Below, piece after piece: positions 12,661 to 64,000 of a stretch of 64,000 nt of DNA. Made by a program: the position numbers and the translations under genes. This stretch comes from an uncultured Planctomycetota bacterium (GTDB taxonomy: Bacteria; Planctomycetota; JAJSAM01; JAKLKS01), in the NCBI GenBank assembly GCA_964607145.1, contig CAZSIX010000003.1:74039-138038 (forward strand), read 5' to 3'. Position 1 is the first letter of the stretch. Each line of letters starts with the position of its first letter. Below the pieces are notes generated by a model. That model saw only the letters and a program-made list of their open reading frames with translations, did no database searches and had not been told where the DNA came from.

Positions 12661-12738
12661 TGGTCGGGGCGACTGGATTTGAACCAGCGACCTCCTGCAC
12701 CCCAAGCAGGCGCGCTAGCCAGGCTGCGCCACGCCCCG
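12661..12738 (-). tRNA. tRNA-Pro (anticodon GGG)
   Basis: Reverse complement folds as a cloverleaf: CGGGGCG/CGCCCCG acceptor stem, GTTCAAATCC T-loop, anticodon stem CCTGC with loop TTGGGGT giving anticodon GGG, and an encoded CCA end. Confidence 0.85.
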
Positions 12739-37985: not shown

Positions 37986-38034
37986 CCCCGCCGCGACGAC
38001 GACATTCCCGGAATGTTGCGTGCGAGTTCGCCGC

Positions 38035-38106
38035 TGGGGCGGCCAGGACTCGAACCTGGATCCAAGGGATTATGAGTCCCCTGCTCGACCGATTGAGCTA
38101 CCGCCC
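38035..38106 (-). tRNA. tRNA-Met (anticodon CAT; elongator Met or Ile2 type)
   Basis: Reverse complement GGGGCGGTAGCTCAATCGGTCGAGCAGGGGACTCATAATCCCTTGGATCCAGGTTCGAGTCCTGGCCGCCCCA. Acceptor stem GGGGCGG/CCGCCCC is perfect. Anticodon loop CTCATAA. G1-C72 are paired, so it is not an initiator tRNA. CCA is not encoded. Confidence 0.8.
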
Positions 38107-38200
38107 CGCGGGCGCCATTCTGCGGTCGGCGAGGCGGCCGCGTCGAGGGAACCCCGGCGCGCGCGTTGACTCCCGCGTCGCGGGATCGCATGATGCGGCC

Positions 38201-41200: not shown

Positions 41201-43828
41201 GATCTCAAGGTCACGAACCCCGGCGGAGGGAACGGGACCGGCAGCGGGATCCTCGACATCAAGACGGAGAGCACGCTCGTCGTGAACGCGGTCTCCCCCT
41301 CGTCGGGGACGGCCCACGGCGGCGAGCGCGTCACCGTCTACGGGAGCGGATTCTCGGCCGGCGCGACGGTGGACTTCGGCGCCGTCGCCGCCGGGGGGAC
41401 CCAGGTGATCGACGGCAACACCATCGTCACCACGGCGCCCGTGCCGGCGTCGCTGTCGAAGACCGCGGGGACCACCGTCGCCGTGAAGGTGACCAACCCC
41501 GGCGGCGGGAACGCCAGCCTCGCGTCCGCCTACACCTACGCGGCGGACTCCGGCGCGCCCATGATCGTCTCCACGTTCCCCGCGGACCTCGCCACCGGCG
41601 TGCCCACCAATCTCAGGAAGTACGTGTTCATCCTGAACGAGCCCCTCGCTCTCTCCAGCCTCGGCGCGGGGGACTTCGACTTCTTCGGCTCCTCCTCGCA
41701 GGACATCACCTCGCCGCGCATCCTCTCCTTCGCGGCGCCCGCGGGCACCACTCTCGTCGTCGTCGAGCGCGGGGTCGTGAGCGGCGGAGGGTCGAACGCG
41801 CCGAACCTCGCCAAGAGCAGCGTCTACGCGGCGGACATCAACTCCGGGGCGCAGGATCTCGCGGGCAACGCCTTCACGCCGCTCCCGTTCTTCAGCGGGT
41901 CCATCTACCGGGCGTCCTTCACCACGGGGACCACCACGGACGCGACGGCGCCCACGCTGTCGAGCAGCGTGCCCGCGTCGAGCGCCACCGGGGTGGCGGT
42001 GACGACCGCAGTCTCGCTGGTCTTCTCCGAGGAACTCGACCCGGCCACCGTGGACCTGACGAACATCACGTTCAAGCAGTCGTCCACGACGGTGCCCGCC
42101 GCCATCGCCCTCGGGACGGACCTCCGGACCGTCACCATCACGCCGCTGGGGACGCTGGCCGCCTCGACGACCTACACGACGGCCGTGACCACCGCGGTGA
42201 AGGACCTCTCGGGGAATGCCGTCGCGGCGACCGTCTCGCGCACGTTCACGACGGCCGCCTCCGACGGGATTGTGCCCACCGTGGACGCCGTCGTCTTCGA
42301 GGACATCCGGTCCGACATGGACGGCTCGACGACGTGGGTCTCCGGCACCGACACCGACTCCAACGGCAATCTCCAGTCCGCCGGTTCCACGGTGGGGTTC
42401 GACCTCTACCTGCCGCGGGCGGGGTGGGAGGTCGTGGTGCGGTTCTCCGACGCCGGCGGCGCCGGCATCGACACGTCCACGTTCTCCGCGAAGGCGAGCG
42501 TGGCCGTGGGGAGCGCCTCCGCCAATGCGGAACTCGCGTCGCAGTTCCAGGTGACCCCGACGGAGGCGCGCTGGCGCGTGCCGGCGACGGGCACCGTGCC
42601 CGGCTTCACCACGGGGGAGGACGTGACGCTCACCTTCCTCGTCAAGGACCGGAACGCGAACACGTCCCTCTCGAAGGTCGTCACGTTCGACGTGGTGGAC
42701 AAGGACGGGTCCGCCACGGGAAGCGGGAGCAAGGGCGGGGCGACGGGCGGGGATCACGACCCCCTGGACGCGCGGCAGACCTGGATCCTCCGGGGCGACC
42801 TCGACGCCTACACGGCGTCCTACGCGACCAGCGGGAGCGACGTCGGGGCGACGTCCACGATCTCCTCGAACTCCATCCCCGACCTCGACGAGGCGCTCCG
42901 CCTCATCGGCCTGAACACCGGCTCCATGACCACCGCCGCCGCCGCCACGATGAACGGCACGGAGCGCGGGACCAACGCCATCGTCCGGCAGCGCTTCCTC
43001 GATCGCGTGCGGGCGAGCCTGCGCGCCCACTTCGGCATCGCCGAGGACGGCGTGCGCGACGCCGGCTCCGTGGACATCGAGTTCCTCCTCCCCGGCGAGC
43101 AGGGCGCGCTCACCTCCATGCCCGCGTACTCCGCCGCCAACGCGTTCAGCAGCGGGAAGGCGTTCTCCGAGATCTCCATCGGCGGACCCTTCGGCGCCGA
43201 GGGGAACGCGTTCACGACGGGACCGGTCCTCGGGCTCGCGTGGATCGACGCGCGGAACACCCGGCAGGAGGCCAACCTCAACTTCGGCTCGGGCGGCAAC
43301 ACGACGGGGATCTTCCTGATGGGCATGCTGAAACTCCAGGTCAACGACTCCTCCGCGACGCTGTTCGGCGGGTCCATCTCCGACGTGTTCGTGACGGCGC
43401 GGGGAGGGAAGCCCGTGGGGGAGGACGCGCTGGACGACAACGTCCTCGCGGACACCTTCGATCGCACGTCCGGCGGGAACTCCGCCGCGGAGAACGTCCG
43501 GTACGACGCCATCATGGACGCCGTGGAACTGGTGGCGTTCTACGTGGGCACCGTCACCGCGCACGAGATCGGGCACTCCACGGGGCTCGTGGCCGACGGG
43601 GCGCCGAAGCCCGGGCTCTTCGGCAACGCCCACCGCAGCAACTCGTTCACCGAGGCGACCAGCGCCAACCCGAACACGTCGTTCCACCTGAACTACCCGG
43701 GCGTGGACATCATGGCGCCGTCGGTCGGGTTCGAGACGGCGGTCGCCACGGGGACCGATTTCCCCGTCTTCAATCCCGTGGAACTGGCCTACCTGCGCAA
43801 CCGCAGCGTCATCGACGAGGGGAAGTGA
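38201..43828 (+). CDS. Giant secreted multi-domain protein (1875 aa): N-terminal PPC-like domain, ~10 tandem Ig-like repeats, SbsA/Big-like domains, and C-terminal HExxHxxG zincin-like (putative metalloprotease) domain
   Basis: Signal peptide MRGNLQGRTVVLACALAAVGAAAFA. PPC-like segment DGDSFALDLHAAGKFSATIKVAKG. The repeat motif ..PT(L/V)xSVSPA...QG.....T.TGTGFR.GG..T..GAG.T.....V.S.TQ..V.V...AA.G.RDVTYTQPA.GG recurs about 10 times. Near the C-terminus is VGTVTAHEIGHSTGLVADGAP (HExxHxxG..D). Possible leaderless promoter: TTGACT, a 17-nt spacer containing palindrome CCCGCGtCGCGGG, then CATGAT 7 nt before the ATG. Confidence 0.85.
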   Translation: MRGNLQGRTVVLACALAAVGAAAFADGVGVRAVNGDKLSAAVDAPGDGDSFALDLHAAGKFSATIKVAKGSTLLPTLRLFRPGGAAQSLPPLTGAGTGKVSLKNFVVPEGETGTWRALVEGTGGSTGGYELAVKWKPPKKVAFPPTLLGPGEERAFEFPLEEGASFKALVKSGKGEAAAASVEFAGPEGSAPGEWNVVAVLKGTSHALTGTPASATPAAAGTATLIVTADAAGGTYTPSVVLKFAKAAKRTALLPTEASVGGVSPSTLRQSSTGTPLAQSIDVSGSDFLPGTVLRQDGAEPLSATTFVSSALLRVTMSVPEDAPFGTRDLLLCPPELSGEPLSLAAAVQVRAPIPTLSSVSPAVLKQGEAGVVLTVTGTGFRAGGSITLEGAGLTLGSTTVVTSTQAQVTVTVNSAAAVGARDVTFTQPAAGGGADVVRTDGIQVHYPDPTLASVSPADVTQGVSSIQFTLTGTGFRDGGIVTLGGDIGISGAVRLSDTQYRVTLAVDAAAALGARDVTYTQPADGGSASKTLAGGLVVSAPTPTLTTLSGAVLRQGAVASTLTVNGTNFRDGGAISISGAGLTLGTTTIVSATQATVPVTVGAAAAVGLRDVTYTQPVTAGGLTATKTNAFQVLYPIPTVASVSPAQWTRGETTKPATITGTGFRTGGVVTTSGAGLTLASVVVVNDTTITLNYSVDGAAALGFRSLTYTQPADGGADAATKASALEVFPVGPEVTAVTPSAWIPGTPRFNVALTGVNFNSGTSTSLSGAGVTIHSTTFVSSTALTLLVSVDSAAALGLRDLTVTPGAGGGAPKAFTGAVAIAGSAPRPASLSIATLAQGATSLAVTVRGSGFRSGDTLAASGSGVTFASVSVTDSETITALVTATGSATTGARDLTVTHASSSGGLAGTLEGAFSVVGGTPTVSTVTPGTLGRTAGGGATREFAVVVTGTNFSGGATLTASRTGGSGVSVKSGSESVTSSSSMAATLAIAGGATAGTWDLKVTNPGGGNGTGSGILDIKTESTLVVNAVSPSSGTAHGGERVTVYGSGFSAGATVDFGAVAAGGTQVIDGNTIVTTAPVPASLSKTAGTTVAVKVTNPGGGNASLASAYTYAADSGAPMIVSTFPADLATGVPTNLRKYVFILNEPLALSSLGAGDFDFFGSSSQDITSPRILSFAAPAGTTLVVVERGVVSGGGSNAPNLAKSSVYAADINSGAQDLAGNAFTPLPFFSGSIYRASFTTGTTTDATAPTLSSSVPASSATGVAVTTAVSLVFSEELDPATVDLTNITFKQSSTTVPAAIALGTDLRTVTITPLGTLAASTTYTTAVTTAVKDLSGNAVAATVSRTFTTAASDGIVPTVDAVVFEDIRSDMDGSTTWVSGTDTDSNGNLQSAGSTVGFDLYLPRAGWEVVVRFSDAGGAGIDTSTFSAKASVAVGSASANAELASQFQVTPTEARWRVPATGTVPGFTTGEDVTLTFLVKDRNANTSLSKVVTFDVVDKDGSATGSGSKGGATGGDHDPLDARQTWILRGDLDAYTASYATSGSDVGATSTISSNSIPDLDEALRLIGLNTGSMTTAAAATMNGTERGTNAIVRQRFLDRVRASLRAHFGIAEDGVRDAGSVDIEFLLPGEQGALTSMPAYSAANAFSSGKAFSEISIGGPFGAEGNAFTTGPVLGLAWIDARNTRQEANLNFGSGGNTTGIFLMGMLKLQVNDSSATLFGGSISDVFVTARGGKPVGEDALDDNVLADTFDRTSGGNSAAENVRYDAIMDAVELVAFYVGTVTAHEIGHSTGLVADGAPKPGLFGNAHRSNSFTEATSANPNTSFHLNYPGVDIMAPSVGFETAVATGTDFPVFNPVELAYLRNRSVIDEGK
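39250..41530 (+). repeat. Tandem ~95-aa Ig-like domain repeats within giant protein 1 (coding)
   Basis: At least ten consecutive units share the TGTGFR.GG ... RDVTYTQPA.GG pattern. Read from the translation; nucleotide-level identity was not assessed. Confidence 0.65.
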
Positions 43829-43829
43829 C

Positions 43830-45038
43830 ATGGGATCCCGCCTCCACCGCCCGTTCGCCGCCGTCGCCCTTCTCGCGGCGGCCCTCGCCCCCGCGGCCCG
43901 TGCGGAGACGCGCGACCCGCGGACCCTCACGCTCGGGTGGCTCACGGAGCGCGCCGCCGTCGTCGCCCTCCTCACCGTCGACGAGGCGACGGGGGAGGGG
44001 CCGCTGCGGGAGGCCCGCGCGCGCGTGGACGAGGTGCTGCGCGGGGCGGCCCTCCGCGCGGGGGAGGCCGCCGTCCTCGCCTTCCAGGACACGGGGCACG
44101 GCGTCCCCTGGGTGCCCGGGGCGCGCCACCTCGCGTTCCTGGAGCCGGGGCCCGCGGCCGCCGACGGATCCGCGCGCTGGGGGTTCGTCTCCGGGTTCCA
44201 CGGGCTGAAGCGGGTCGTCACGGAGGGCCCCGAGGGCCGATTCCCCGATCTCGTCCGCGCCTACGCGGCGCTGCTCGACGGGGAGGGGCTGCCGACCCGG
44301 CGCGAGGCGCTGCGGGCGCTCCTCGTGGAGTGGATGGGGGATGGAGACGCCGGCGTGCGGTGGAGCGCGGCGACGGACTTCGTGCGCATCGCCGGCCTCC
44401 GCGACGGGATGGCCGAGGACGAGCGGGCGCGCGTGGCGGCGGCGTTCCGCGCGGCGCCGTCCGGGAAGGACGACAAGGGCGCGCTGGCGGTGGCCACGGG
44501 CCACGCCGGCGGCTCCGACGCCGCGGCGGCGCTCGTGGAGGGACTGGCGGACGCGCGGGCCCGGGAGTTCCGCGGCGACGTGGCGGAGGGGCTCCGGCGC
44601 CTCGGGGATCCCGGCGCGCCGGCCCGGCTCGCCGCGACGCTGGAAGGGGCCCCGCCGCCGCGGCGCGCCGACGTCGCGTTCGTCCTGGGGAGGAGCGGGG
44701 ATCCGGCGGGGGCCGCCACGGCGCGGGCGCTGGTGGCCGACGCCGCGGGGGAGGTGCGCATCGAGGCCGCCCACGCCGTGGGCCTGCTGGCCCGGGCGGA
44801 GCGGCGGCGGGACGGCGAGTCCCGGAGCGCGGGCCGCGCCGAACTCCTGTCCATGTTCGAGCAGGCCGCGGACGCGTGGCAGGAGCGGCGGGCCGCCCTC
44901 TGGGCCCTCGTGCAGCTGGACGACCCCGAGGCGTTCGCCGCCGTGCGCCTCCTGGCGGAGAGCCACGGGGATCCCCGCGTGAGAGCGGAGGCCGCGCAGC
45001 GGCTCCGGTTCCCCAGGGAGTCGCTGATCCTGCGGTAG
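43830..45038 (+). CDS. Secreted HEAT/PBS-lyase-type repeat protein, translationally coupled to giant protein 1
   Basis: ATG 2 nt after the giant gene's stop. Signal peptide AAVALLAAALAPAARA. Ala/Leu/Arg-rich helical repeats with periodic D-x-x-VR and G-D-P motifs (GDPRVRAEAAQRL). Confidence 0.7.
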   Translation: MGSRLHRPFAAVALLAAALAPAARAETRDPRTLTLGWLTERAAVVALLTVDEATGEGPLREARARVDEVLRGAALRAGEAAVLAFQDTGHGVPWVPGARHLAFLEPGPAAADGSARWGFVSGFHGLKRVVTEGPEGRFPDLVRAYAALLDGEGLPTRREALRALLVEWMGDGDAGVRWSAATDFVRIAGLRDGMAEDERARVAAAFRAAPSGKDDKGALAVATGHAGGSDAAAALVEGLADARAREFRGDVAEGLRRLGDPGAPARLAATLEGAPPPRRADVAFVLGRSGDPAGAATARALVADAAGEVRIEAAHAVGLLARAERRRDGESRSAGRAELLSMFEQAADAWQERRAALWALVQLDDPEAFAAVRLLAESHGDPRVRAEAAQRLRFPRESLILR

Positions 45039-46367: not shown

Positions 46368-48872
46368 CTACTCCTCGATCTGGCGCTTGCGGCGGACGAA
46401 GTTCGTGAGGAAGCGGAACGCCGACTGGTCGGTGACCTCCCGCTCCGCCTCCGCCTGCTTGGCGTAGACGCCGCGCTCGCGCAGGTCGCGGATCCTCTCG
46501 TAGGAGAAGCCGAAGTGGTCGGCGGAGAACGCCATGCGATCCTCCTCCGTCTTGATGCTCACGTTCTTCGCGTCCTTCAACTTGCTCAGGGTCTGGCGGT
46601 CGAAGTGGTTCGACGAGCCCATGACCACGCCGTGGCCCGACGTGAACCACGCCGCCAGGTTGCCGCCGCCGTTCCAGCGCGTCGCGCAGTCGGGGCTGTC
46701 CATGAGCACCTCGCAGCGCTCGGGGTCGAGCACCTCGATGAGGTAGGCGCCGTAGAGTTCGTACATGGGGCGGGAGACGTCGGGGAACACGCCGTCGAGG
46801 TACGTCGTCTCCGTGGGCATCTCCTCGGCGCGCACCTTGTCGAGGACCTGGCCCTTCGCCTTGGGGTACTTCCGGATGGTGTCCGGGAACTCCTTCCCGA
46901 TGGTCTCGTTGATGGCCCAGCAGGAACCGAAGAGCGCCCCGCCCACGTGCACGAACCACTGGATGCGGTCGTGGTCCTCCTTCTGCACCTCGCCGGTGCA
47001 GTTCGCCACGAAGACGCCGAAGGGCTGGAGGCCCGTCTCCACGACGCCCTTGGCGCGCGTCATCCGGTGGTTCACCTCCAGCGTCGTCAGCAGGTTCTCG
47101 ATGGAGTCGCCCCGGCTCTGGAGGACCACGACGTCGAGGTCCTCGTACACGTCCCGGTCGCGGAGGGCGTATCCGTACTTCTTGGCGTCCCGGATCTCCT
47201 TCTCCCGATCGATGATCTCGAAGGTCGCCTCCTCGGCGGCCCACCAGTCCTCCCAGGACTTCCGCCGCAGCGGGAGGTCCTTGCCCGCGAGCCGCTTCAG
47301 GAACTCCCACGCGGTGCGGGAGACGCACGGCTCCGCGTCCCCGACGGCCACCACGAGATGGGGGATGGCCTTGGCCGACTTGAGCCAGCCCAGCCCGGCC
47401 GCGGCGGCTCCCCGGTTCCGCCAGTCCTTGTGGCCCAGCGCGGCGACCAGCGCCGGGAGCCCCTTCTCGTCGCGGGTCTTCCCGAGGGAGACGGCGGCGC
47501 TGCACGCGACCTCCCAGGCGGTGTCCTTCTCCACCGCCGCCGCCAGCACCTCCGCGGCGCCGGGGACCTTGGGCACGCCCAGCCGGACGGCGGCCTCCTC
47601 GCGCACCACGGGGGACTCGTCGTACCGGAGGACCTTGGCGAAGAGCGCGAAGGCGTCGTCGGCGCGGGCGGTCTTCCAGCGGGAGTAGCCGCGGAGCGCG
47701 TGGAACCGGACCGACGGCGTCTTGTCGGCGATGCAGGTGCGGGCGAGGTGCTCCAGCGCCGCGTCCCCGCCCGCGCGACCGAGAGCGGCGGCGGCGGCGC
47801 GCCGCGCCTCGACCCCCGCGTGGGTCAGCCCCACCTCCGCCAGCGCCGCCACCACGCGGGAGGCGTCGCCGATGGGGCCCGCGCCCTCCTGGAGGGTGAC
47901 GACGGACGCGTTGGGGTTCTGCGGTGCGGCCGCGGGAGGCGGAGGGGCGGCGCCCGCCGCTTCCCCCGGCGCTCCCGGTTCCGGCGTCTCGGCGGGGGGC
48001 GGCAGGGGGAGGCCGCGGGCCACGGACCCCAGCACGCGGGCGAGTCGGGCGGAGGCGATGGAGTCCTTCTCGTTGCGGTACGCGCCCACGATGCGCTGCA
48101 CCGCCCGGTCGACGTCCTCGTTCTCCCGGTGGGTCCAGAGGATCCGTCGGATCGCCGCCGCGGCGCGGCGCTCCACGAGGTCCAGCAGGTCCTTCGACTG
48201 GAGGAGCGACACGAGGACCGGCAGGGCCTCCAGGGACCCCGTGCGCGCCATGCCCTCGACGGCCCCCGCCCGGGCCCCGATGTCCGGATCCTCGAAGAGC
48301 GTCTCCAGTTCCTTGAGGACCGACGGATCCCGGGTCGCCCCGGTGGCCGCCGCGGCCTCCCGGCGGACCACGCCCTCCTTGTTCCGGATGGCGGCGCGCA
48401 GCCCCTCCAGCGACGACGCGTGCCGGATCTCCGCCAGCGCCTCCGCCGCCAGCGCGGGGACCATGTCCTTGGCGCGCAACGCGGGGATGAGCATCTTCGC
48501 GCCCTCCTCGGGGGCGATGGCCCCGAGGGCGGCGGCGGCGGTCAGCCGGATGCGCCGGATGTCGCCGTTCACCGCCAGTTCCGCGAGGGGGCGGAGGGAG
48601 GCCTTGGGCGTGCCGCGGCGGGCCAGGCCGGCGCAGGCGGCCTGCACGACCTCCCAGTCCCGGTCCGCGGTGGCGAGCAGCAGGAACGCCTCCGCGCCCT
48701 CGCCCCCGTTGTTGGCCGCCTGGCGGACGGCGGCGAGGCGGTCCCTCACGTCGGCGCTCTTGAGGGCGGCGGGGTCGTACTCCTGGGCGCGCGCCGGCGG
48801 CGGGAGGAGGGCGCCCGCGGCCAGGAGCAGCGCGACGAGAGGGAGAGGCCTTCCGCGGGGGGGCTGGCTCAT
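46368..48872 (-). CDS. Secreted HEAT-repeat protein with C-terminal domain of unknown function (834 aa)
   Basis: Signal peptide MSQPPRGRPLPLVALLLAAGALLPPPARAQ (ATG 48872). Multiple HEAT-like helical pairs (DWEVVQAACAGLARRG, DPDIGARAGAVEGMARTG, SPVVREEAAVRLG, DWRNRGAAAAGLG). The C-terminal ~250 aa are more polar and resemble no known domain. The upstream part of the ORF to 49100 is excluded. Confidence 0.7.
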   Translation of the reverse strand: MSQPPRGRPLPLVALLLAAGALLPPPARAQEYDPAALKSADVRDRLAAVRQAANNGGEGAEAFLLLATADRDWEVVQAACAGLARRGTPKASLRPLAELAVNGDIRRIRLTAAAALGAIAPEEGAKMLIPALRAKDMVPALAAEALAEIRHASSLEGLRAAIRNKEGVVRREAAAATGATRDPSVLKELETLFEDPDIGARAGAVEGMARTGSLEALPVLVSLLQSKDLLDLVERRAAAAIRRILWTHRENEDVDRAVQRIVGAYRNEKDSIASARLARVLGSVARGLPLPPPAETPEPGAPGEAAGAAPPPPAAAPQNPNASVVTLQEGAGPIGDASRVVAALAEVGLTHAGVEARRAAAAALGRAGGDAALEHLARTCIADKTPSVRFHALRGYSRWKTARADDAFALFAKVLRYDESPVVREEAAVRLGVPKVPGAAEVLAAAVEKDTAWEVACSAAVSLGKTRDEKGLPALVAALGHKDWRNRGAAAAGLGWLKSAKAIPHLVVAVGDAEPCVSRTAWEFLKRLAGKDLPLRRKSWEDWWAAEEATFEIIDREKEIRDAKKYGYALRDRDVYEDLDVVVLQSRGDSIENLLTTLEVNHRMTRAKGVVETGLQPFGVFVANCTGEVQKEDHDRIQWFVHVGGALFGSCWAINETIGKEFPDTIRKYPKAKGQVLDKVRAEEMPTETTYLDGVFPDVSRPMYELYGAYLIEVLDPERCEVLMDSPDCATRWNGGGNLAAWFTSGHGVVMGSSNHFDRQTLSKLKDAKNVSIKTEEDRMAFSADHFGFSYERIRDLRERGVYAKQAEAEREVTDQSAFRFLTNFVRRKRQIEE

Positions 48873-49111
48873 GGACCCATTCTGCGGCCCCCCGGGGGCG
48901 GCGGCAAGGCGGTTCGCCCGCGCCGCCCGGCGACCCGTTCCCCCGCGCGGACCCCCGGACGTCGAAGGAGGGGTGGGCGGTGCGGCCCGCAATGGGACGG
49001 GGAGCGGTTGCATGAGGCGGGATCCCCGCCTAGGATTGGACGGTCGCCGGGGCGCCCACGACGCGCCCGCGGTCGCCGGTCCGCCGCAACGCCGGAACAC
49101 GAGGAGAACCG

Positions 49112-51340
49112 ATGGACGCGAACTCCCTCCGCCGCACCCCTTCCCTCGCCCTGCTCCTGCTGGCGGGCGCGCTCCTGGCGTCGGCGCCCGCGCGGGCCGA
49201 CGAACTGGGCATCCCCACGGGCGGGCTCGACTCGGTCCTCCTGACCGATGGGCGGGTCGTCCGCTGCGTCGTCGGGGAGGCCTCCAAGGACGGCAAGACG
49301 GTCCTCCAGTTCCCCAGCGCGTCGTTCCCCGTGGAGACCGCGCGCATCGAGACCGTGCGCCGTTTCGCGGATTACGACCCCGAGCCCCGCAACGACGAGG
49401 AGAAGGCCCGCGTCGAGAAGGGGCTCATCCGGTGGGACGGGCGGTGGATCCCGAAGGAGAAGGCGCTGGCCGCGCAGAAGAAGCAGGCGGAGGAGGACGC
49501 GAAGCAGCGGCTCGACGACGACGCCCACGGGACGTGGGAGACGCGTCGCAAGGTCGAGACCGAGCACTTCGTGTTCGAGGCGGACATCCCGAAGGCCCAG
49601 CTCGACTACTACTCGGGCCTCATGGAGGCCTACTACGCGGCGTTCACGAAGTACTTCAAGATCACCCTCACCCAGCGGGAGAAGAAGCAGAAGCTCCCCG
49701 TGTTCCTGTTCCGCAAGCGCGACGACTTCCGGGTCTATCACGACCGGGACACGAGCGGGAAGAGCGAGCACCTCCTCGGGTACTTCATGCCCGCCATCGG
49801 GCAGGAGAGGCTCGTCTTCTTCGACCTCCCCGGGAACCGGGACGACACCGTGGCGGTCATGTTCCACGAGGCGACGCACTTCCTCATCCACCTCGCGGAG
49901 CCCAAGGTGCTCACGTCGCGCTGGATCCACGAGGGCGTCGCGGAGTACATCGGCAGCAGCGTGTACACGGGGAAGACCTTCCGGATCGGGGGCACGCAGG
50001 ACGGCCGCCTCCTCCACTTCCAGGAGATGATCCGGAAGGGGAAGGTCATCCCCATGGACAACTTCATGCAGGCGGGGAACCCGTCCGTGGAGGGCCGCGG
50101 GATCGAGTTCTCCGGCGAGCACTACGCGCAGACGACGATGCTCGTCCACTTCCTCATGGAGGGGAAGAACCAGAAGTACCGCAACGCCTTCATCTCCTAC
50201 TTCACGCGGTGCCTGTCCGGGAAGGGCGTCAAGTACACGGCCATCGCGGGCTCCGACCAGAAGTTCATCGAGTACGAGGAGGGCAAGGCGCTCCTGCTGC
50301 GGACGCTGGGGCTCAAGGACTTCGAGCCCCTCATGAAGGAACTCGAGGAGTACGCCATGGCGCTGCCGCTCGGGGACGCCACGGCGTACGTGACGCGCGG
50401 GGAGATCTCCTACTTCAACCGCCGCGACCAGGAGGCCGCCTTCGCCGACTGGGACGAGGCCGAGCGGCGCGGAGTCGACAACGCGAAGGTCCTGGCGGAA
50501 CTCGGTCGCGTCTACACCCACATCGGAGAGCGCGCCGACCGCGTCGTCCCCTTGCTCCAGCGGGCCGTCGAGCTGGATCCGCTGGCCGTCAAGTACCGCT
50601 ACTGGCTGAGCACCCGGCTGCCCGAGGAGGAGTCGCTCCTGCAGTTGCGCATCTGCGTGGAGATCGAGCCCACGTATGCCGACGCGCTCTCCGCGCTGGG
50701 CCTCCGGACGTTCATCGCCCTGCGCGATCGGGACAAGGTGGGGGAGGACGAGAGGCCGCGCGTCGACGAGGCGCTGGCCATGCTGGCAAAGGCCATCGCC
50801 ACGGATCCCAAGGCCGAGACCTACTTCGCGCAGGCGTCGCTGTACCTGCTCATCGGCGAGTTCGAGAAGGCGCGGGAGGCCGCCAAGGCGGCCACGGAGA
50901 TGGCGCCCGAGGACGAGGGATACCTGTGGCGTCTCGCCCAGTGCTACGCGCTCCTCGGCAGCGCCGAGGACTTCGGCAAGATCCTGCGGCGCATCGAACT
51001 CCTCCTCCGGCGCGGCGCGCAGGTCAGGTCCGGTGAGACGGCCGCCGGCGCGCGCCAGGGCATGAGCCCCGAGGACGCCGCGGCGCTGATGGCGACCCTC
51101 GTGCGCCGGATGGCGGAGCGCTGCCTGACGTGGGACAAGTCGAAGGAGGCGCTCATGGCGCTGGGGGCGTGGTACGCCCGCCGGCCGCCGCAGAACGAGG
51201 ACGACTGGGTGTTCTGGACCACCGTGGCCTCCATGGCCGGGGACGACGCGGGGGCGCGCAAGATCGCCGGCGACGGGCTGGCCGCGTGTCCCGAGTCCGC
51301 CCTCCTCAAGCAGTACGCCGCCGCCGGGTCGGGGGAATAG
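49112..51340 (+). CDS. Secreted DUF1570-type zincin-like (HExxH) protein with C-terminal TPR repeats
   Basis: Signal peptide present. Motif AVMFHEATHFLIH is characteristic of DUF1570 / peptidase MA-like proteins. TPR-like helices in the C-terminal half. RBS GAGGAGAAC before the ATG. Confidence 0.75.
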   Translation: MDANSLRRTPSLALLLLAGALLASAPARADELGIPTGGLDSVLLTDGRVVRCVVGEASKDGKTVLQFPSASFPVETARIETVRRFADYDPEPRNDEEKARVEKGLIRWDGRWIPKEKALAAQKKQAEEDAKQRLDDDAHGTWETRRKVETEHFVFEADIPKAQLDYYSGLMEAYYAAFTKYFKITLTQREKKQKLPVFLFRKRDDFRVYHDRDTSGKSEHLLGYFMPAIGQERLVFFDLPGNRDDTVAVMFHEATHFLIHLAEPKVLTSRWIHEGVAEYIGSSVYTGKTFRIGGTQDGRLLHFQEMIRKGKVIPMDNFMQAGNPSVEGRGIEFSGEHYAQTTMLVHFLMEGKNQKYRNAFISYFTRCLSGKGVKYTAIAGSDQKFIEYEEGKALLLRTLGLKDFEPLMKELEEYAMALPLGDATAYVTRGEISYFNRRDQEAAFADWDEAERRGVDNAKVLAELGRVYTHIGERADRVVPLLQRAVELDPLAVKYRYWLSTRLPEEESLLQLRICVEIEPTYADALSALGLRTFIALRDRDKVGEDERPRVDEALAMLAKAIATDPKAETYFAQASLYLLIGEFEKAREAAKAATEMAPEDEGYLWRLAQCYALLGSAEDFGKILRRIELLLRRGAQVRSGETAAGARQGMSPEDAAALMATLVRRMAERCLTWDKSKEALMALGAWYARRPPQNEDDWVFWTTVASMAGDDAGARKIAGDGLAACPESALLKQYAAAGSGE

Positions 51341-54788: not shown

Positions 54789-55364
54789 ATGTCCCGTCCC
54801 GTCCCGTACGTCCGCCGCGGGCTCGCTCTCGCGGCCCTCCTCGCCGCCGCCGCCCTCGCCCCCTCGCCCCGTGCCGGGGCCCAGGACGCCGACACGCCGC
54901 TGGATCGCTCCCTCCAGAAGGTCGAGGCGCTGCTCACCTCCCTCAAGGCCTCCGGCGGCGCCGACCCCGCCCTGGTCCGGCAACTGGAGGCCATCGCCAA
55001 GGACCTCCGGGAGGCGAAGGCCGCCGCCGGTGCGGCGACTCCTCCCCCCGCCGGTGGCGGGCCCGGCGCGGGCGCCGGTGCCGGCGCCGGTGCCGCCGCG
55101 GGGGCGAGCCGCTGGCTGATCGACCGCGTGATGGAGGGCGTCGAACTCAACGAGAAGGACCGCAAGGTGGCCGAGGACCTGCTGACGGTGTTCGGCGAGG
55201 ACTACGCCCTCGCCCGCCTCCACAAGGATGATCGGTCGAAGCAGGTCCTCAAGTCCGACGTCGAGGATCGGATCGACAGGGCGCTTCCCCGGCGCGAAGC
55301 CGGCAAGATCAAGAACAACCTCGCCACCCAGTTGCGCTGGATGGAGTGGGGGGGGCGGAGGTAG
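54789..55364 (+). CDS. Small secreted hypothetical protein (191 aa) with low-complexity GAGAGAGA linker
   Basis: RBS GGGAGG before the ATG. Signal peptide LALAALLAAAALAPSPRAGAQ. The helical C-terminal part looks protein-like. Confidence 0.55.
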   Translation: MSRPVPYVRRGLALAALLAAAALAPSPRAGAQDADTPLDRSLQKVEALLTSLKASGGADPALVRQLEAIAKDLREAKAAAGAATPPPAGGGPGAGAGAGAGAAAGASRWLIDRVMEGVELNEKDRKVAEDLLTVFGEDYALARLHKDDRSKQVLKSDVEDRIDRALPRREAGKIKNNLATQLRWMEWGGRR

Positions 55365-55602
55365 GTCGGGCGCCGCGGGGCGCCCCTCGGCCCCGCCGTC
55401 GGCGACCCGCTCCCGCCTCCGGCGCGGCGATCCGCCCCCGTCGGCGTGGCCCGCCGGAGGGGCGCCCCCCTGCGGTCCCTCTCCCGGTCCCGGTGCGGTC
55501 ACCGCCGCGCCTGCTGGCCCCGTGGCGCCGCGGGTGATAGGGTCAGGTGAGTGTCCGTTCGTTGTGGAGCGGCCGCCGACGACCAACTCCCGGAGGGGCA
55601 GC

Positions 55603-58600
55603 ATGCGCCGAACCACCGCCGCCGCGCTCGTGACCGCCGTCCACGCCGCCGTGCTCGCCGGGGCCCTGGCGGGGGGCGGTCTCGACCACCGGCTCATGCC
55701 GGGGCAGACCGCCACGGGCAGCATCGGCGAGACCGGGGAGGAGGATCTCCTGCTCCTCCAGACCTTCCCCGGGCAGAAGATCACGGTGCAGATCAAGGCG
55801 CGGTCCGGCGAGTCGCTGCTCCCGGAGTTGACGTCGCTGCTGAACCCCGCGGAGCAGGACGTCCTCGGCTCCGCCATCGTGAAGACGTCGAAGAAGGGCG
55901 ACGTCGTGACGCTCAAGTCCCTCGTCTCCCCGTCGGGAGGGACCTGGGTCCTCGGACTCGGGGGGGACGGCGGCACCACGGGGACCTACGACATCAAGAG
56001 CAAGGGGTCCCCGTCCAACGCCCGCCTCGGCGCGGGCGACGTGGCGTCCCCCGGCGCCGAAGTCCCCCTCGAGTTCGCCGCCGAGGCGGGGTCCGACGTG
56101 GCCATCCAGGTGAAGGCGGACCAGGGTCAGTCGCTGCGTCCCCTGGTGGCGCGCATCGAGGGGCCGCAGGGGACGGTGAACCTCGGCTCCGCGGCGCGGA
56201 AGACCTCCGCGAAGAAGGACTCGCTGAAGGGAGTCCGCCTCGCGGACAACGGGACCTACACGGTGTTCGTCACCGGCGACGAGGGCACGACGGGAACCTT
56301 CACCGCCCTCATCAAGGTGGGGAAGACGGTCCCCCTGGACTTCTCCGTGGATCCCACCGGCGATCCGCCGCCCCCGGGTCCCCCCGCGGTCACGGCCGTG
56401 AACCCCGGCGAGTACGACGCGCCGTCGACGGGCAACTCCATGACCGTGACCGGCCTGCGCTTCGTGAGCGGGGCGCAGGTGTCGTTCACGCCGGCCACGG
56501 GGATCACCGGCCTCTCGACCTCGTTCAACTCCGCCACGAGCCTCACGGCGACCTTCGACGTCGCGGGGGACGCCACCCCGGGCCTCCGCTCGGTGACCGT
56601 CACCAACCCCGACACGCAGACCGGCACGAAGGCGAACGCGTTCAGCGTCGTCGCGGGTCCGACGGGCGTCGAACTGAACGCCGTCACTCCGTCCTCCGGT
56701 CCCGGCGCCGGGGGGACGCGCGTGCTCCTCCAGGGGGAACTGTTCGGCAACGTGACGGAGGTGCTCTTCGGGACCGAGCCGGCGCAGGCCATCCTGCGCG
56801 TGGACGCGGAGAACATCCTCTGCACGGTGCCGCCCGCGGCCGCGGTCTCCGCCACCGGCGCGTCCTCCGTGGACGTGTCCGTGGAGGTGGACGGCAACGA
56901 GACCGCCACCCTCGTCGGCGGCTGGACCTACGACGCGGACCCGAGCCCTCCGAAGGTGGCCGCCCAGGTCCCGGCGCTCAACTCGACGGGCGCGCCGCGC
57001 AACCTCCAGAAGGTGGTGCTGTTCCTCGACGAGCGGCCCGACCCGGCGTCCGTGGTCACGGGCAACTTCCTCTTCTTCCGGTCCAGCGTGTCGGGCCCCA
57101 ACGACATCATCAACCCGTCGGTGACCGGCGTGGCCGTGGGCGCCGGCGGACGATGCATCGTCGTCCAGCGCGGCGGGGCGACGGGGGGCACCCTTTCCGC
57201 CACCAGCACCTACGTGACCCAGATCTCCAACGGCGTCACCGACGTCGCGGGCAACCCCCTCGACCCGACCCCCTTCGGCGGGAGCGTGTTCCAGGGGAGT
57301 TTCGCGACGGGCGCGGGCACCGACGCGACGGCGCCGACGGTGGTGTCCACGACCCCCGGCGCGTCGGCCGTGGGTGTGGACATGGACGGGACCGTCTCGA
57401 TCCTGTTCTCCGAGGCCATCGACCCGTCGCTGCTCGCCGGGGCGTTCTCCCTCAAGCAGGGGCCCACCAACATCCCCGGGGACCTGGACGTCGACCAGAC
57501 GCTGACCACCGCCACGTTCACGCCACGGTTCCGCCTGGCACCGTCGACGACGTACACCATCGGGATCGCCACCACCCTCCGGGACCTGAGCGCGAACGCG
57601 CTCGCGACGGCGCTCTCGAGGACGTTCACCACGGCCGCCGCCGACGGGACCGCTCCGACGGCCGTCCTCACGGTGGACGTCCTCCCGCAGGACATGAACG
57701 GGTCGGGGACCTACGTCAACTCCGGAGGCACCGGGGGCAACGCGTTCGACGCCTACCTCCCGCGCAGCGGCTTCACCATCGACCTCGAGTTCACCGATGC
57801 GGGGGGCAGCGCCGTGGACGCGTCCTCGCTCACCGTCACGTGCGACCGCGCCATGGGGAGCGTGTCCGGAGGCGCCGAACTGGCGGGGTTCTTCACCGCG
57901 ACGCCGCTCGGCGGGACCTGGACCGTGCCGGCGGCCAACGCGCTGGCCGTCAACAGCAACGTCACCTTCACCGCCCGCGTCTCCGACAACGCCGGCAACC
58001 AGTCCCCGCAGGTGACGCTCGTGGTGGACGTGGCCGACATCACGAAGAGCACCTCCGGCGGCAGCGCGAACGCCTCCACGGATCGCGATCCCTTCAACGT
58101 GCGCCAGGTCTGGCTGCTGCGGTTCGATCAGGACATCTACGCCACCTCCTCCACGGGCAGTTCCACCATCACCGTGAACTCGAGTCTCCCCGGCGGAGGG
58201 AACGGCACGCTCGACCTGCGCGAGGACCTGGCGCTCGTCGGCCTCAACGGGACGGAGTCGGGGACCGGGGCGGCCTCCGTGACGAACGGGTCGAGCACGG
58301 GCACCAACGCCATCGTGCAGCGCATCTTCCGGGAGTCCGTGCGCGGGTACCTGAACCTGCGCTACGGGATCGCCTTCGACGGCACGCGGAGCGCCGACAG
58401 CGTGGACGTCGAGTTCCTCCTGGCCGGCGAGCAGGGATCCCTCTCCGCGGTGCCCGACCCGGCGACGTGGAACTCGGGCAGGGGGTACTCGATGCTCTCG
58501 TGCACCGGGGACGAGAGCCCCAACTCCTCGAACACGGCCATCGGGCGCGCGAACTTCGACCTGCGCAACACGCAGCAGGACGACGACAGCAACACGGGCG

Positions 58601-59121
58601 TGGGCGGCGGGAACAACCTGGGCGCGTTCCTGACCCACATGATCCGCAAGCGGATCAACGACTCCACGGGGACCCTGTTCCGGGACGTCTTCGATCCGCT
58701 CATCCCCGCGCGGAGCGGCACGGCGGTCGGCGCGTCCAACCTCGACGCCACGGTGCTGTCGGGGTCGTTCAACTACGCCACGGCCACGCAGCCGCAGAAG
58801 GACCGCTTCGACCTCATCATGACCGCCATCGATCACATGGCGCTGTACCTGTCCTTCGTCGCCGCGCACGAGGTCGGCCACTCGGTCGGACTCGTCGCCG
58901 ACGGCGCGCCGCCGGCGGGGCTGTTCGGCGGATCGCACGAGGGCAACACGTTCATCACCGACGGCGGCTTCACCACGTCGGGCCACATCGACACGCCGGG
59001 GAACAACCTCATGGAGGCGGCCTCCCCGTTCTCGGAGGCCGTGGCGCAGGGGTCCGCGTTCGCCCGGTTCGGTCCCATGAACGCGGCATGGCTGCTCAGG
59101 AGGTTCGTGTATGACCAGTGA
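55603..59121 (+). CDS. Giant secreted protein 2 (1172 aa), paralog of giant protein 1: N-terminal PPC-like domains, Ig-like domains, C-terminal HExxHxxG zincin-like domain
   Basis: RBS GGAGGGG before ATG 55603. Signal peptide AAALVTAVHAAVLAGALA. Two PPC-like segments (EEDLLLLQTFPGQKITVQIKA; SDVAIQVKADQGQSL). C-terminal VAAHEVGHSVGLVADGAPPAGLFGG aligns with giant 1; both also share (FN)VRQ.W.LR.D.D.Y and GAEGNAFTTG / GTNAIVQR blocks. Confidence 0.85.
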   Translation: MRRTTAAALVTAVHAAVLAGALAGGGLDHRLMPGQTATGSIGETGEEDLLLLQTFPGQKITVQIKARSGESLLPELTSLLNPAEQDVLGSAIVKTSKKGDVVTLKSLVSPSGGTWVLGLGGDGGTTGTYDIKSKGSPSNARLGAGDVASPGAEVPLEFAAEAGSDVAIQVKADQGQSLRPLVARIEGPQGTVNLGSAARKTSAKKDSLKGVRLADNGTYTVFVTGDEGTTGTFTALIKVGKTVPLDFSVDPTGDPPPPGPPAVTAVNPGEYDAPSTGNSMTVTGLRFVSGAQVSFTPATGITGLSTSFNSATSLTATFDVAGDATPGLRSVTVTNPDTQTGTKANAFSVVAGPTGVELNAVTPSSGPGAGGTRVLLQGELFGNVTEVLFGTEPAQAILRVDAENILCTVPPAAAVSATGASSVDVSVEVDGNETATLVGGWTYDADPSPPKVAAQVPALNSTGAPRNLQKVVLFLDERPDPASVVTGNFLFFRSSVSGPNDIINPSVTGVAVGAGGRCIVVQRGGATGGTLSATSTYVTQISNGVTDVAGNPLDPTPFGGSVFQGSFATGAGTDATAPTVVSTTPGASAVGVDMDGTVSILFSEAIDPSLLAGAFSLKQGPTNIPGDLDVDQTLTTATFTPRFRLAPSTTYTIGIATTLRDLSANALATALSRTFTTAAADGTAPTAVLTVDVLPQDMNGSGTYVNSGGTGGNAFDAYLPRSGFTIDLEFTDAGGSAVDASSLTVTCDRAMGSVSGGAELAGFFTATPLGGTWTVPAANALAVNSNVTFTARVSDNAGNQSPQVTLVVDVADITKSTSGGSANASTDRDPFNVRQVWLLRFDQDIYATSSTGSSTITVNSSLPGGGNGTLDLREDLALVGLNGTESGTGAASVTNGSSTGTNAIVQRIFRESVRGYLNLRYGIAFDGTRSADSVDVEFLLAGEQGSLSAVPDPATWNSGRGYSMLSCTGDESPNSSNTAIGRANFDLRNTQQDDDSNTGVGGGNNLGAFLTHMIRKRINDSTGTLFRDVFDPLIPARSGTAVGASNLDATVLSGSFNYATATQPQKDRFDLIMTAIDHMALYLSFVAAHEVGHSVGLVADGAPPAGLFGGSHEGNTFITDGGFTTSGHIDTPGNNLMEAASPFSEAVAQGSAFARFGPMNAAWLLRRFVYDQ

Positions 59122-60259
59122 GACCCGCATCGCCATCGCCGTCGCGGCCGTCGTCGTCGCCTCCGCGTGGACGCCGGCCCGCGCCGAGAGCCGGGCGGAG
59201 GAGGACGTGACGCCGCTGGCGCTCCTCCGCGTGGCCGACGCCGTCGTGGTCGCCGCCCCTGCGGCGGGCGGATCCGGTCTGGTCGTGGAGACGGCGCTCG
59301 TCGGTCCGCTGGCCGCCGGCTCCACCGTCGTCCCGCTGGACGAGGGGGGGCTCCGGCCCCTCGTCCCGCCCTCCGGCCGGGTGGTCGCCCTGCTGCGACG
59401 GAGCGGCGTCGAGGGGTGGGAGGTCCCCGGCGGCCCCCTCGGGTGGTTCCCCGCGGGCGAGGGTCCCGGCGGCGGCGCGGCCGCGGATCTCTTCCGCGCC
59501 CTCGCCGCGGCGCGCGAGTTGCCCGCTCCCGCGGCCCGGACGGCCGGCCAGCGGGCGGCGCTGGTGGCGGCGGTGCGCGACGGGGACGCCCGGCTGCGCG
59601 CGGGCGCCGCGCTGGACCTCCTCACGGACCCCGCGACCCTGGCGGACGCCACGGAGGCCGAGCGCGCCGCGCTCGCCGCCGCGTTCCGCGCCTGCGGACC
59701 CCGCGAGCGGGCCCGGGCCCACCTGGCGCCGATCCTCGGGCGCGTCCGGGCGCCCGGTGCCGCGGCGGATCTCCTCGGCGCGCTCGAGGGACCCGGGGGG
59801 GACGTGCTCGCCGCGCCCGTCGGCGCGGGCCTCGCCCTGCTCGAGGACCGTGCCGCCCTCGACGCCCTCGCGGCGCGCGCGGTGACCGTGGATCCCGGGA
59901 TGCGGCTCCGCGTGGCCGTCGCGCTGGCCGCGACGCGCCATGCCGCGGTCCGCCCGGCGCTGGCCTCCCTCCTCGGGGACGGAGACGTGCGGATCCGCCG
60001 CGAGGCGGCGACGGGCCTCGGCGCGCTCCGCTCCGCCGACGCGGCTCCGGCGCTGCTGGCCCGGTTCCTCGGGGAGGGCGCCGCCGCGGCGGAGTCCGCC
60101 GCGCCGGTCCGCCGCGCCCTGGCATGGGCCCTCGCCCAGTGCGACGCCCCGGAGGCGTGGACGGCGCTCCGCGACGCCGTCGAGCGGGACCCCGACGACG
60201 CGTTCCGGGCCTTCGTGCGGGACACCCTCGCGAACCCGCGCCGGGCGTTCGTCCGGTAG
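59111..60259 (+). CDS. Secreted HEAT-repeat protein, translationally coupled (11-nt overlap) to giant protein 2; paralog of the 43830..45038 gene
   Basis: ATG overlaps the 3' end of the giant gene. Signal peptide IAIAVAAVVVASAWTPARA. Ala/Arg/Leu HEAT-like repeats (DGDARLRAGAALDL, GDGDVRIRREAATGLG). Confidence 0.7.
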   Translation: MTSETRIAIAVAAVVVASAWTPARAESRAEEDVTPLALLRVADAVVVAAPAAGGSGLVVETALVGPLAAGSTVVPLDEGGLRPLVPPSGRVVALLRRSGVEGWEVPGGPLGWFPAGEGPGGGAAADLFRALAAARELPAPAARTAGQRAALVAAVRDGDARLRAGAALDLLTDPATLADATEAERAALAAAFRACGPRERARAHLAPILGRVRAPGAAADLLGALEGPGGDVLAAPVGAGLALLEDRAALDALAARAVTVDPGMRLRVAVALAATRHAAVRPALASLLGDGDVRIRREAATGLGALRSADAAPALLARFLGEGAAAAESAAPVRRALAWALAQCDAPEAWTALRDAVERDPDDAFRAFVRDTLANPRRAFVR

Positions 60260-62703: not shown

Positions 62704-63471
62704 TCACCCCGACGTGTCGAGGACGATGAACTCCCGCCGGTCCGTGGAGCAGGTGTCGCAGTGGTCCGGCGGTGCGGTGCCCGGGAGGAACACGCGGAGG
62801 CAGCGGGGGCACTGCCACGTCACCGCCAGCATCCCCGTGTCGCCGGGCTCGGAACCCATGGCCTCGCCGGCGGCGAACAGGATGTCCGTCGTGCCCGGCG
62901 CCTGGACCTCGCCGGGAGCGGCGGCCATGCCGGGCTCGAGATCGACGTGGAGACCCTCGGCCACGCGGTTGATGTAGTTGAAGTAGGCCACGACCTGCGC
63001 GGCGTCGTGGATGGCGCGGTCGTCGTGGCCGGCGCGTCGGAGCGCGCGGACATCCTCCTCCCGCATGGATCCGGGGCGCAGGGTCAGTTTCTCCGCGAAG
63101 ACGCAGAGCGCGCGATCGCGCGCCTCCAGCGGCGCCGCGCGCCAGTCCTCGATGAGCGCCTCCGCCAGCGCCTCGCCCGCATCGCCCCCGACTTCCGACC
63201 GGAAGTCCGCCGCGTGGGCCGACGTTCAGTAGTGGCACCCGTTCACGGCGCTCGTCACCGTGGCCAGCATCTCGCGCTGGCGCCGCGACAGCGGCGAGGG
63301 CCCGAACATCAGCGCCAGGTAGAACTTCATGGACGCGTCCAGCACGCCCGGGTTGGGGCTCATCAGGCGCACGATCCCGAACACCTTGCCGGCCCGCTTG
63401 ATGGCGGCCTCGTAGTGGGCGCGGAGCGTGCCCTCCGCGTCGTCGTCGCCCACGGTGCGGATCCAGGCCAT
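62704..63471 (-). CDS. AhpD/carboxymuconolactone-decarboxylase (CMD)-family peroxidase-related protein; candidate selenoprotein (in-frame UGA at 63226..63228) with C-terminal Cys4 zinc-ribbon tail
   Basis: ATG 63471 with AGGAGG upstream; its ATGA overlaps the upstream gene's stop. N-terminus MAWIRTV...EA.G.L..HY is typical of this family. The active-site motif reads NGCHY-[TGA]-TSAH, i.e. CxxUxxxH in place of AhpD CxxCxxxH. The same frame stays open and protein-like for another 174 codons (..EEDVRALRRAGHDDRAIHDAAQVVAYFNYINRVAEGL..), ending CPRC...HCDTC. A perfect hairpin follows the TGA. Confidence 0.7.
63186..63212 (-). promoter_or_regulatory. Candidate bacterial SECIS hairpin downstream of the in-frame UGA
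   Basis: mRNA reads UGA-N18-GACUUCC-GGUC-GGAAGUC: a 7-8 bp perfect stem with a GGUC-type apical loop containing G and U, loop centre ~25 nt after the UGA. This fits the spacing and loop features of bacterial SECIS elements. Confidence 0.5.
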
Positions 63472-64000
63472 CAGTCCTCCTTGCCCGACGCCGCCGCGCC
63501 GCCGCCGGCGCCCGCGGGGCGCGCCCGCGGGGGCCGACGGAGCGCGGCCATCACGCCCGGATCGAACCGGACGAGGTAGGTCTCCAGGAATGCCGCCGTC
63601 TCGACCATGGCCGCCTCCAGCGCGGGAGTCGGCCCGGCGAACGGGTGCACGGCGTCGAAGGTGTGCTGCGTCCCCCGGAGGCCGCGGAACCGGGCGGGAC
63701 GACCGGCCGCGATGGCCCCCTCCACGAGGGAGCGCCCCTCGGCCACCGGCACGGAGGTGTCCTCCTCCCCGTGGATCACGAGGAGCGGACAGGCGAGGCC
63801 GGTCGCGGCGCGGGCCACGTCCAGTGCGGCCGCGCGGCGCTCGGCGTCGTCCAGGAACCCGACCCCGAGCGGGAGTTCCTCGCCGGTGCGCGTGTTGAGG
63901 ATGGGAAGGCGACCGAGCCGCCGCCACCGCTCCTTCTCCTCCGGCCGGAACCGATCGGCGCGCGACACGGGCGCCCACGCGGCGACGGCGGCGATGCCAT
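63471..64000 (-). CDS. Alpha/beta hydrolase (dienelactone-hydrolase-like), 5' end beyond window
   Basis: C-terminal hydrolase segment ..CPLLVIHGEEDTSVPV ... GTQHTF. The ORF is open to the window edge. Its stop overlaps the start of the downstream candidate selenoprotein. Confidence 0.6.
   Translation of the reverse strand, partial: GIAAVAAWAPVSRADRFRPEEKERWRRLGRLPILNTRTGEELPLGVGFLDDAERRAAALDVARAATGLACPLLVIHGEEDTSVPVAEGRSLVEGAIAAGRPARFRGLRGTQHTFDAVHPFAGPTPALEAAMVETAAFLETYLVRFDPGVMAALRRPPRARPAGAGGGAAASGKED

Follow-up and report, generated by a model that had tools for sequence, protein, structure and literature searches.

Proteins of the AhpD-like family that carry a CxxU motif (COG2128) have been known as selenoproteins since 2005, when 27 sequences from the Sargasso Sea were described as a new family (PMC1088965). 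In the Global Ocean Sampling data the family is among the most abundant selenoprotein families, with 299 sequences and 902 Cys homologs (PMC2398784), and a review of 2026 lists it as "AhpD-like protein, TIGR01926, CxxU" (PMC13188914). The proton relay of Mycobacterium tuberculosis AhpD and its COG2128 homologs is formed by Glu118, Cys130, Cys133 and His137 (PMC6300522). Here we describe a gene of this type in a 64-kb stretch of DNA (hereafter the window; contig CAZSIX010000003.1, positions 74,039 to 138,038, assembly GCA_964607145.1) from an uncultured Planctomycetota bacterium. A first-pass annotation, made from the letters of the window, had proposed a selenoprotein of a known AhpD-like family, and the catalogued TIGR01926/COG2128 CxxU entries cited above agree with it. 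Judged from its sequence and those of its homologs, the gene is very probably a functional, selenocysteine-decoded member of the AhpD-like family (TIGR01926/COG2128), with selenocysteine (Sec) predicted at codon 82. The selenoprotein family is long established, which makes the core finding a confirmation. More unusual are a C-terminal rubredoxin-like fusion and a translationally coupled hydrolase gene.

Like the described AhpD-like selenoproteins (COG2128/YciW, TIGR01926), the window protein is predicted to carry Sec at the second Cys of the active site (CxxU) within the pattern E-x11-C-x2-U-x3-H, and downstream of the in-frame TGA lies a hairpin whose apical loop contains a G. In contrast to them, it is about 70 residues longer, the extra part being a linker and a putative Cys4 rubredoxin-like domain, and its gene shows translational coupling with the alpha/beta hydrolase gene that precedes it, an arrangement found only in the relatives that share the C-terminal fusion (the fused clade). 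With M. tuberculosis AhpD and Cys-type structures (6k40 of Deinococcus radiodurans AhpD, 3c1l, 2pfx), the window protein has in common the all-helical CMD/AhpD fold region, the Glu/Cys/Cys/His relay spacing of the M. tuberculosis enzyme (PMC6300522) and presumably thiol, here selenol, redox chemistry. It differs from them by the predicted Sec in place of the nucleophilic Cys, by the additional C-terminal domain and by the lack of an adjacent gene for an AhpC partner.

An AhpD-like gene interrupted by a TGA

Positions are given in window coordinates, and the gene lies on the minus strand. Two minus-strand open reading frames (ORFs), 63226..63978 and 62704..63066, share one frame. From the likely start, an ATG at 63471, to position 62704 this frame is broken once, by the TGA at codon 82. 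The read-through product consists of 255 amino acids (aa), ...QREMLATVTSAVNGCHY-U-TSAHAADFRSEV... (motif NGCHY-U-TSAH), with 173 codons after the TGA. The start codon and the stop codon of the upstream gene overlap (TGATG), as they do in two relatives (L081 and L082).

The G+C content of the window is 74.4%, and long open frames and stable hairpins are therefore common in it. Each TGA of the six reading frames was examined for flanks of coding-like composition on either side, within 80 codons (G+C content above 0.88 at third codon positions, GC3, and below 0.62 at second positions, GC2). A single site in the 64 kb passed, the TGA at 63228..63226. GC3 was 0.91 across the 173 codons 3′ of this TGA, and the region was 52-57% identical to homologs, with the catalytic and Cys4 residues invariant. 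The first-pass annotation had reported two same-frame ORFs parted by a TGA only, a 255-aa read-through protein with CxxUxxxH at the TGA and more than 170 coding-like codons beyond it; all of these were found again.

With U replaced by C, the read-through protein matched TIGR01926 ("peroxidase-related enzyme" in NCBIfam) over residues 2-176 with 148 bits against a cutoff of 81.8, and the match spanned the TGA continuously. Pfam CMD also matched the read-through protein. The PDB structures 6k40, 3c1l, 2pfx, 2oyo and 2prr aligned over residues 9-180, with their CxxC motifs on C79 and U82. The motif E67-x11-C79-x2-U82-x3-H86 reproduces the spacing of Glu118, Cys130, Cys133 and His137 in M. tuberculosis AhpD, and the E, C and H relay positions were invariant in all 79 genome homologs analysed. 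At the level of sequence, the window gene thus displays every feature of the AhpD-like CxxU family, of which it is a predicted member. Two related models were rejected. The mycobacterial-type AhpD subfamily TIGR00777 gave 18.9 bits (cutoff 191.95), and the AhpD-related CFYUT (seleno)protein model NF041238 gave 67.8 bits (cutoff 175), the alignment covering the C-terminal half of the model only.

The close homologs found by protein search were of two kinds, namely full-length proteins of about 180-200 aa, and proteins of about 160-177 aa that begin exactly at residue 83 and carry the same Cys4 tail. Among 109 aligned database homologs, the column of U82 was occupied by C in 46 and by W in 38, while 21 ORFs started at the next residue. 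One of the W calls (P0003) was checked against the DNA and proved to be a TGA that the gene caller of the source had translated as Trp. A genome scan with one genome per species yielded 80 homologous loci, 79 of which were used for the residue analyses. They came from Planctomycetota, Chloroflexota, Acidobacteriota, Gemmatimonadota, Marinimicrobia, Zixibacteria and other groups. TGA stood in the U82 column in all 80, as well as in all eight distinct metagenomic loci of the fused clade. The Cys-containing homologs have their Cys, rather than a gap, aligned with the TGA, and the Cys-type members of the family are single polypeptides. Therefore, the TGA, being conserved and aligned with Cys, is not a lesion.

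In public gene calls for many homologs (P0002, P0003 and 36 others; L100:260-838), Trp appears at the Sec position, the TGA having been translated with an alternative code. Other family members are split in databases into an 81-aa ORF and a "DUF7130" ORF, and for this gene the contig of the window contributes to a public collection a 120-aa fragment only (P0125). Six proteins of the window are in that collection, on one NCBI contig of 187,612 bp. The Trp calls and split ORFs look like a systematic annotation artefact for this family. Reading the mis-annotated window gene as one selenoprotein gene corrects the 120-aa fragment, the split ORFs and the Trp calls.

The hairpin and the decoding of the TGA

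The Sec insertion sequence (SECIS) of Escherichia coli fdhF is a hairpin in the coding sequence just 3′ of the UGA, with a GGUC apical tetraloop and a stem that starts 11 nucleotides (nt) after the UGA. The SECIS-like hairpin of the window (Table 1) likewise lies in the coding sequence after the UGA, within the codons for D-F-R-S-E-V, and has a GGUC loop. It differs from that of fdhF in the distance to the UGA (18 versus 11 nt) and in its 7-bp stem, which lacks the bulged U.

Eighty sequences could be aligned gap-free over the 45 nt that begin with the TGA. In most of them, columns 22-27 paired with 34-39 in a 6-bp helix, and a seventh pair formed in 14 of the 80, including the window. Counting the seventh pair, 83.9% of the cells were paired, compared with 34-46% when the 3′ partner was slid by 1-3 columns. 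At each of the pairs 24-37 and 25-36, C-G was replaced by U-A in 11 sequences. There were 22 double-change cells against 3.9 ± 1.8 in shuffled alignments, and none of 500 shuffles reached this number. The compensatory changes tie a synonymous site (Asp GAC/GAU) to a non-synonymous one (Val GUC/Ile AUC), and a second link of this type connects Leu CUC/Phe UUC with Glu GAG/GAA. Since a synonymous site is linked to a non-synonymous site in another codon, the pattern would not be expected from protein constraint alone. In the fused clade together with the window, eight of nine sequences had the 7-bp stem and GGUC loop, with the variable pair being U-A, C-G or U-G. When a covariance model (R1) was trained on the 79 other genomes, with the window left out, it matched 63184..63228 (-) with 42 bits (E = 4.5e-14), the next best match in the 128 kb of searched strand having 17 bits. 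This second match (40370..40409 (-), rough E = 1e-4) is antisense to a TIG/Big_5-domain ORF and lacks a two-sided coding signal, and was rejected as a chance match.

The first-pass annotation had noted a hairpin about 18 nt 3′ of the TGA and called it compatible with a bacterial SECIS. The hairpin was located there, and both the compensatory changes and its recovery by a model built without the window speak for that view. Our own covariance model matches the site, and no Rfam SECIS model does.

Several observations weigh against Sec decoding. Compared with dinucleotide shuffles, the folding energy of the hairpin has a z-score of -0.55, so that the stability of the hairpin does not exceed that of shuffled sequence with equal composition. 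Part of its conservation is at the protein level, since it overlaps the codons of a conserved peptide motif, D-[LF]-R-x-E-[VI]. The curated Rfam SECIS families gave no match in the window at gathering thresholds and, with E up to 10, nothing but chance hits around the site. Finally, none of selA, selB, selD and tRNA-Sec was found in the window: Pfam models detected no SelA-, SelB- or SelD-type domains in its 27 best coding frames, Rfam tRNA-Sec had no match in the window at gathering thresholds, and the only tRNA genes in the window are those for tRNA-Pro and tRNA-Met. Because the hairpin energy is unexceptional at 74% G+C, it is conservation and covariation that make the case for a SECIS.

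In a motif and tblastn search for SelA, SelB and SelD over 1.45 Mb of homolog loci, sel genes were found in two loci only, both from metagenome-assembled genomes (MAGs). A Phycisphaerae MAG (L049:102-3488 (-)) encodes SelB (TIGR00475, 356 bits) and SelA (TIGR00474, 564 bits), both above cutoffs, about 3 kb from its AhpD-like TGA gene. In a Planctomycetaceae MAG (L006:10767-12674 (+)), a SelB homolog follows the AhpD-like gene after about 200 nt. The two loci are indirect evidence for sel genes in the genome of the window. SelB is conserved within the phylum at about 36% identity. ARAGORN detected no tRNA-Sec in 60 loci.

A standard amino acid (Trp, Cys or Gly) might be inserted at the TGA in place of Sec, either through near-cognate decoding or under a different genetic code. 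Public callers do place W in 38 of the 109 database homologs, and the window shows no Sec machinery, but we consider such read-through very unlikely. TGA is an ordinary stop at 11 of 28 ORF ends in the window, including the terminator of this gene and the stop of the upstream hydrolase, and a reassigned code is thereby excluded. The column is otherwise occupied by Cys, with no genuine Trp, since the one W call examined was a misread TGA. Moreover, code reassignment needs no conserved hairpin at SECIS distance, and Sec genes lie beside the homolog in the two Planctomycetota MAGs (selB and selA in one, a SelB homolog in the other).

A pseudogene or a sequencing error had been named as the alternative in the first-pass annotation; a Cys codon (TGC or TGT) may have been mutated to TGA, or misread as TGA in sequencing or assembly. 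TGA is one base away from both Cys codons, the part after the TGA seems to be called in the public record as a protein of its own with 120 aa, and the absence of Sec machinery from the 64 kb would fit as well. A lesion is nevertheless hard to reconcile with a TGA shared by 80 of 80 independent genomes and by eight distinct loci of the fused clade, with a hairpin kept by compensatory changes, and with 173 codons past the TGA that retain their coding signal (GC3 0.91), their 52-57% identity and their invariant residues; we therefore regard it as highly improbable. The split calls in databases (an 81-aa ORF and a 159-aa "DUF7130" ORF) could also be taken at face value, as an N-terminal CMD fragment of 81 aa next to a C-terminal Cys4 protein with a translation start of its own. 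This is the least credible of the alternatives, as the window offers no start codon (ATG, GTG or TTG) in the 54 codons that follow the TGA, and the split would cut through the AhpD fold and leave C79 and H86, members of one catalytic motif, on different proteins. Both the TIGR01926 match and the PDB alignments cross the site without a break, and the Cys-type members of the family consist of a single chain. If the TGA is decoded as Sec, as we think very probable, the gene marks this 74% G+C organism as a user of Sec and predicts selABCD elsewhere in its genome.

The C-terminal Cys4 domain and the coupled hydrolase

The Ala/Pro/Gly-rich linker is followed by a domain in which four Cys residues (C221, C224, C238 and C241) and W219 were invariant across 11 aligned tails. 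An AlphaFold model, covering the last 59 residues only, had a pLDDT (predicted local distance difference test) of about 90 in the Cys4 core and of about 53-54 in the linker part. Its best PDB matches were the rubredoxin-like C-terminal domains of rubrerythrins (9fj2, 1ryt, 1nnq and 9qg1), with a root-mean-square deviation of 1.3-1.8 Å over 36-37 residues, and the closest NCBIfam region to the tail was also the C-terminus of rubrerythrin. Two clade relatives, P0001 and P0057, exceeded the DUF7130 cutoff of 35 with 39 and 36.6 bits, respectively. The tail had initially been described as zinc-ribbon-like with four Cys. The four Cys in two CxxC pairs were confirmed, and the tail is better described as a predicted rubrerythrin-type rubredoxin-like Cys4 domain, of which the metal may be Fe or Zn.

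Three points tell against this assignment. The window tail itself remains below the Pfam cutoffs, with 16.1 bits for DUF7130 (cutoff 35) and 8.6 bits for RUBY_RBDX (cutoff 26.5). It lacks the CPSCGAP knuckle of the relatives and has CDTCST instead. The structural matches have weak E-values (0.05-0.35), which are expected because the domain is so small. In common with the rubrerythrin Fe(Cys)4 domain (PF21349 RUBY_RBDX; 1ryt, 1nnq, 9fj2) and DUF7130 (PF23458), the tail has two CxxC knuckles about 14 residues apart, and as in rubrerythrin it is a C-terminal addition to a peroxide-related catalytic domain. In contrast to rubrerythrin, it is attached to a Cys/Sec redox domain and not to a di-iron four-helix bundle.

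The fused clade consists of metagenomic and MAG contigs with 73-77% G+C (L081-L085, L088, L090, L093 and L094). Its loci share one layout, in which the stop of a gene for an alpha/beta hydrolase of 299-302 aa overlaps the next start and is followed by an 81-codon CMD ORF, the TGA and an ORF of 159-175 codons annotated as DUF7130. The hydrolase lies directly upstream in every locus long enough to show it, and these relatives of the partial hydrolase in the window have abhydrolase-type Pfam matches. None of the 80 general AhpD-like loci has the coupled hydrolase, and none of the 79 general genome homologs analysed has the Cys4 tail. As far as these sequences indicate, fusion to the Cys4 domain is limited to a small clade of genomes with 73-77% G+C. 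The best NCBIfam matches of the hydrolase were weak and below cutoff, to lactonase and esterase families.

Free-standing copies of the Cys4 domain of about 60 aa (WKCLRCGELMPRG...CPSCGAPKTEFVLLDED) were found in metagenome contigs with 50-58% G+C (L086, L087, L089, L091 and L095-L099). These copies pass both the DUF7130 and the RUBY_RBDX cutoffs. They adjoin genes for OsmC-like proteins (four loci), AhpC/TSA peroxiredoxins (three loci), a DsbA-like thioredoxin, rhodanese and Fer4_19, suggesting that they are an uncharacterised small redox partner. This gene context supports such a role and does not prove it. In the searchable literature, we found no paper that mentions DUF7130 and none that combines AhpD, rubredoxin-like and selenocysteine, and the 2026 review does not mention rubredoxin (PMC13188914). 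The fusion, together with the free-standing copies in peroxidase clusters, offers a testable hint on the partner that re-reduces AhpD-like proteins.

Proposed mechanism and other features of the window

In the proposed mechanism, the UGA at codon 82 would be decoded as Sec during translation, with the hairpin 18 nt downstream recruiting SelB with Sec-tRNA(Sec). Sec82 would stand in for the second, nucleophilic Cys in the CxxC motif of AhpD, and would form a selenenylsulfide with Cys79 in the course of the redox cycle. The proton relay would consist of Glu67 and His86, and peroxide or an oxidised partner of the peroxiredoxin type may be the species that is reduced. The predicted rubredoxin-like Cys4 domain is fused to the C-terminus in this lineage through a flexible linker, and is most likely an integral metal centre that passes on electrons, or binds a partner, for re-reduction of the Cys-Sec pair. 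A more specific proposal, that the domain is a redox-active Fe centre of the rubredoxin type feeding electrons directly to the Cys79-Sec82 selenenylsulfide, is tentative and in our opinion rather doubtful. If it held, the protein would be a self-contained, rubrerythrin-like selenoperoxidase or reductase in which a Cys/Sec site replaces the di-iron site, and the free-standing DUF7130 relatives would form an unrecognised class of small proteins that donate electrons to thiol and selenol peroxidases. In that case, the coupled alpha/beta hydrolase would suggest that the physiological substrate is an ester or lipid hydroperoxide.

Table 1 Features of the predicted AhpD-like selenoprotein locus and of other parts of the 64-kb window
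Feature	Position	Strand	Basis or remark
Predicted selenoprotein gene, complete	62704..63471	-	255 codons, predicted Sec at codon 82; terminal TGA stop at 62704..62706
Shine-Dalgarno-like AAGGAGGA	63482..63475	-	3 nt 5′ of the ATG at 63471
AhpD-like/CMD-fold peroxidase-related domain, residues 2-176	62944..63468	-	TIGR01926, Pfam CMD, PDB alignments
In-frame TGA, predicted Sec codon (U82)	63228..63226	-	Aligns with the second Cys of CxxC
SECIS-like hairpin GACUUCC-GGUC-GGAAGUC	63207..63190	-	Perfect 7-bp stem, GGUC loop, 18-nt spacer after the TGA
Linker, residues 181-218	62818..62931	-	Ala/Pro/Gly-rich, conserved AAGEAM motif; tail alignment
Putative Cys4 rubredoxin-like domain, W219-x-C221-x2-C224 ... 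C238-x2-C241	62734..62817	-	Alignment of 11 tails, AlphaFold model, PDB matches
Upstream alpha/beta hydrolase gene, 3′ part	63471..64000	-	Truncated at the window edge; 69% identical to that of L081 (tblastn)
TauE sulfite-exporter-family gene	34335..35099		Just upstream of Tpx
Cys-type thiol peroxidase Tpx	35218..35715	+	PRK00522, 219.7 bits
Large TIG/Big_5-domain ORF	35948..43828	+	
HEAT-repeat gene	43692..45035		
HEAT-repeat gene	46371..49424	-	
Large TIG/Big_5-domain ORF	55186..59121	+	
HEAT-repeat gene	59081..60256		
tRNA-Pro(GGG)	12661..12738	-	
tRNA-Met(CAT)	38035..38107	-	

The window also encodes an ordinary thiol peroxidase, the Cys-type Tpx. It has no in-frame TGA, and its score on the selenoprotein family Prx-SUH (NF045827), 191 bits, is below the cutoff of 298.

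Each of the two large TIG/Big_5-domain ORFs is followed by HEAT-repeat genes, and the two sets look like a duplicated module. The first of these ORFs must merge separate genes, because the tRNA-Met gene lies inside its stop-to-stop frame. HEAT-repeat and TIG/Big_5 genes are found downstream of the AhpD-like gene in the two long contigs of the fused clade (L081 and L082) as in the window, so that the pair beside the selenoprotein gene is syntenic in them. The EttA protein of the window, the one protein behind a tentative placement of the organism as a high-G+C planctomycete, is 77% identical to a protein of a MAG labelled Planctomycetaceae, and the next named matches are also from Planctomycetota.

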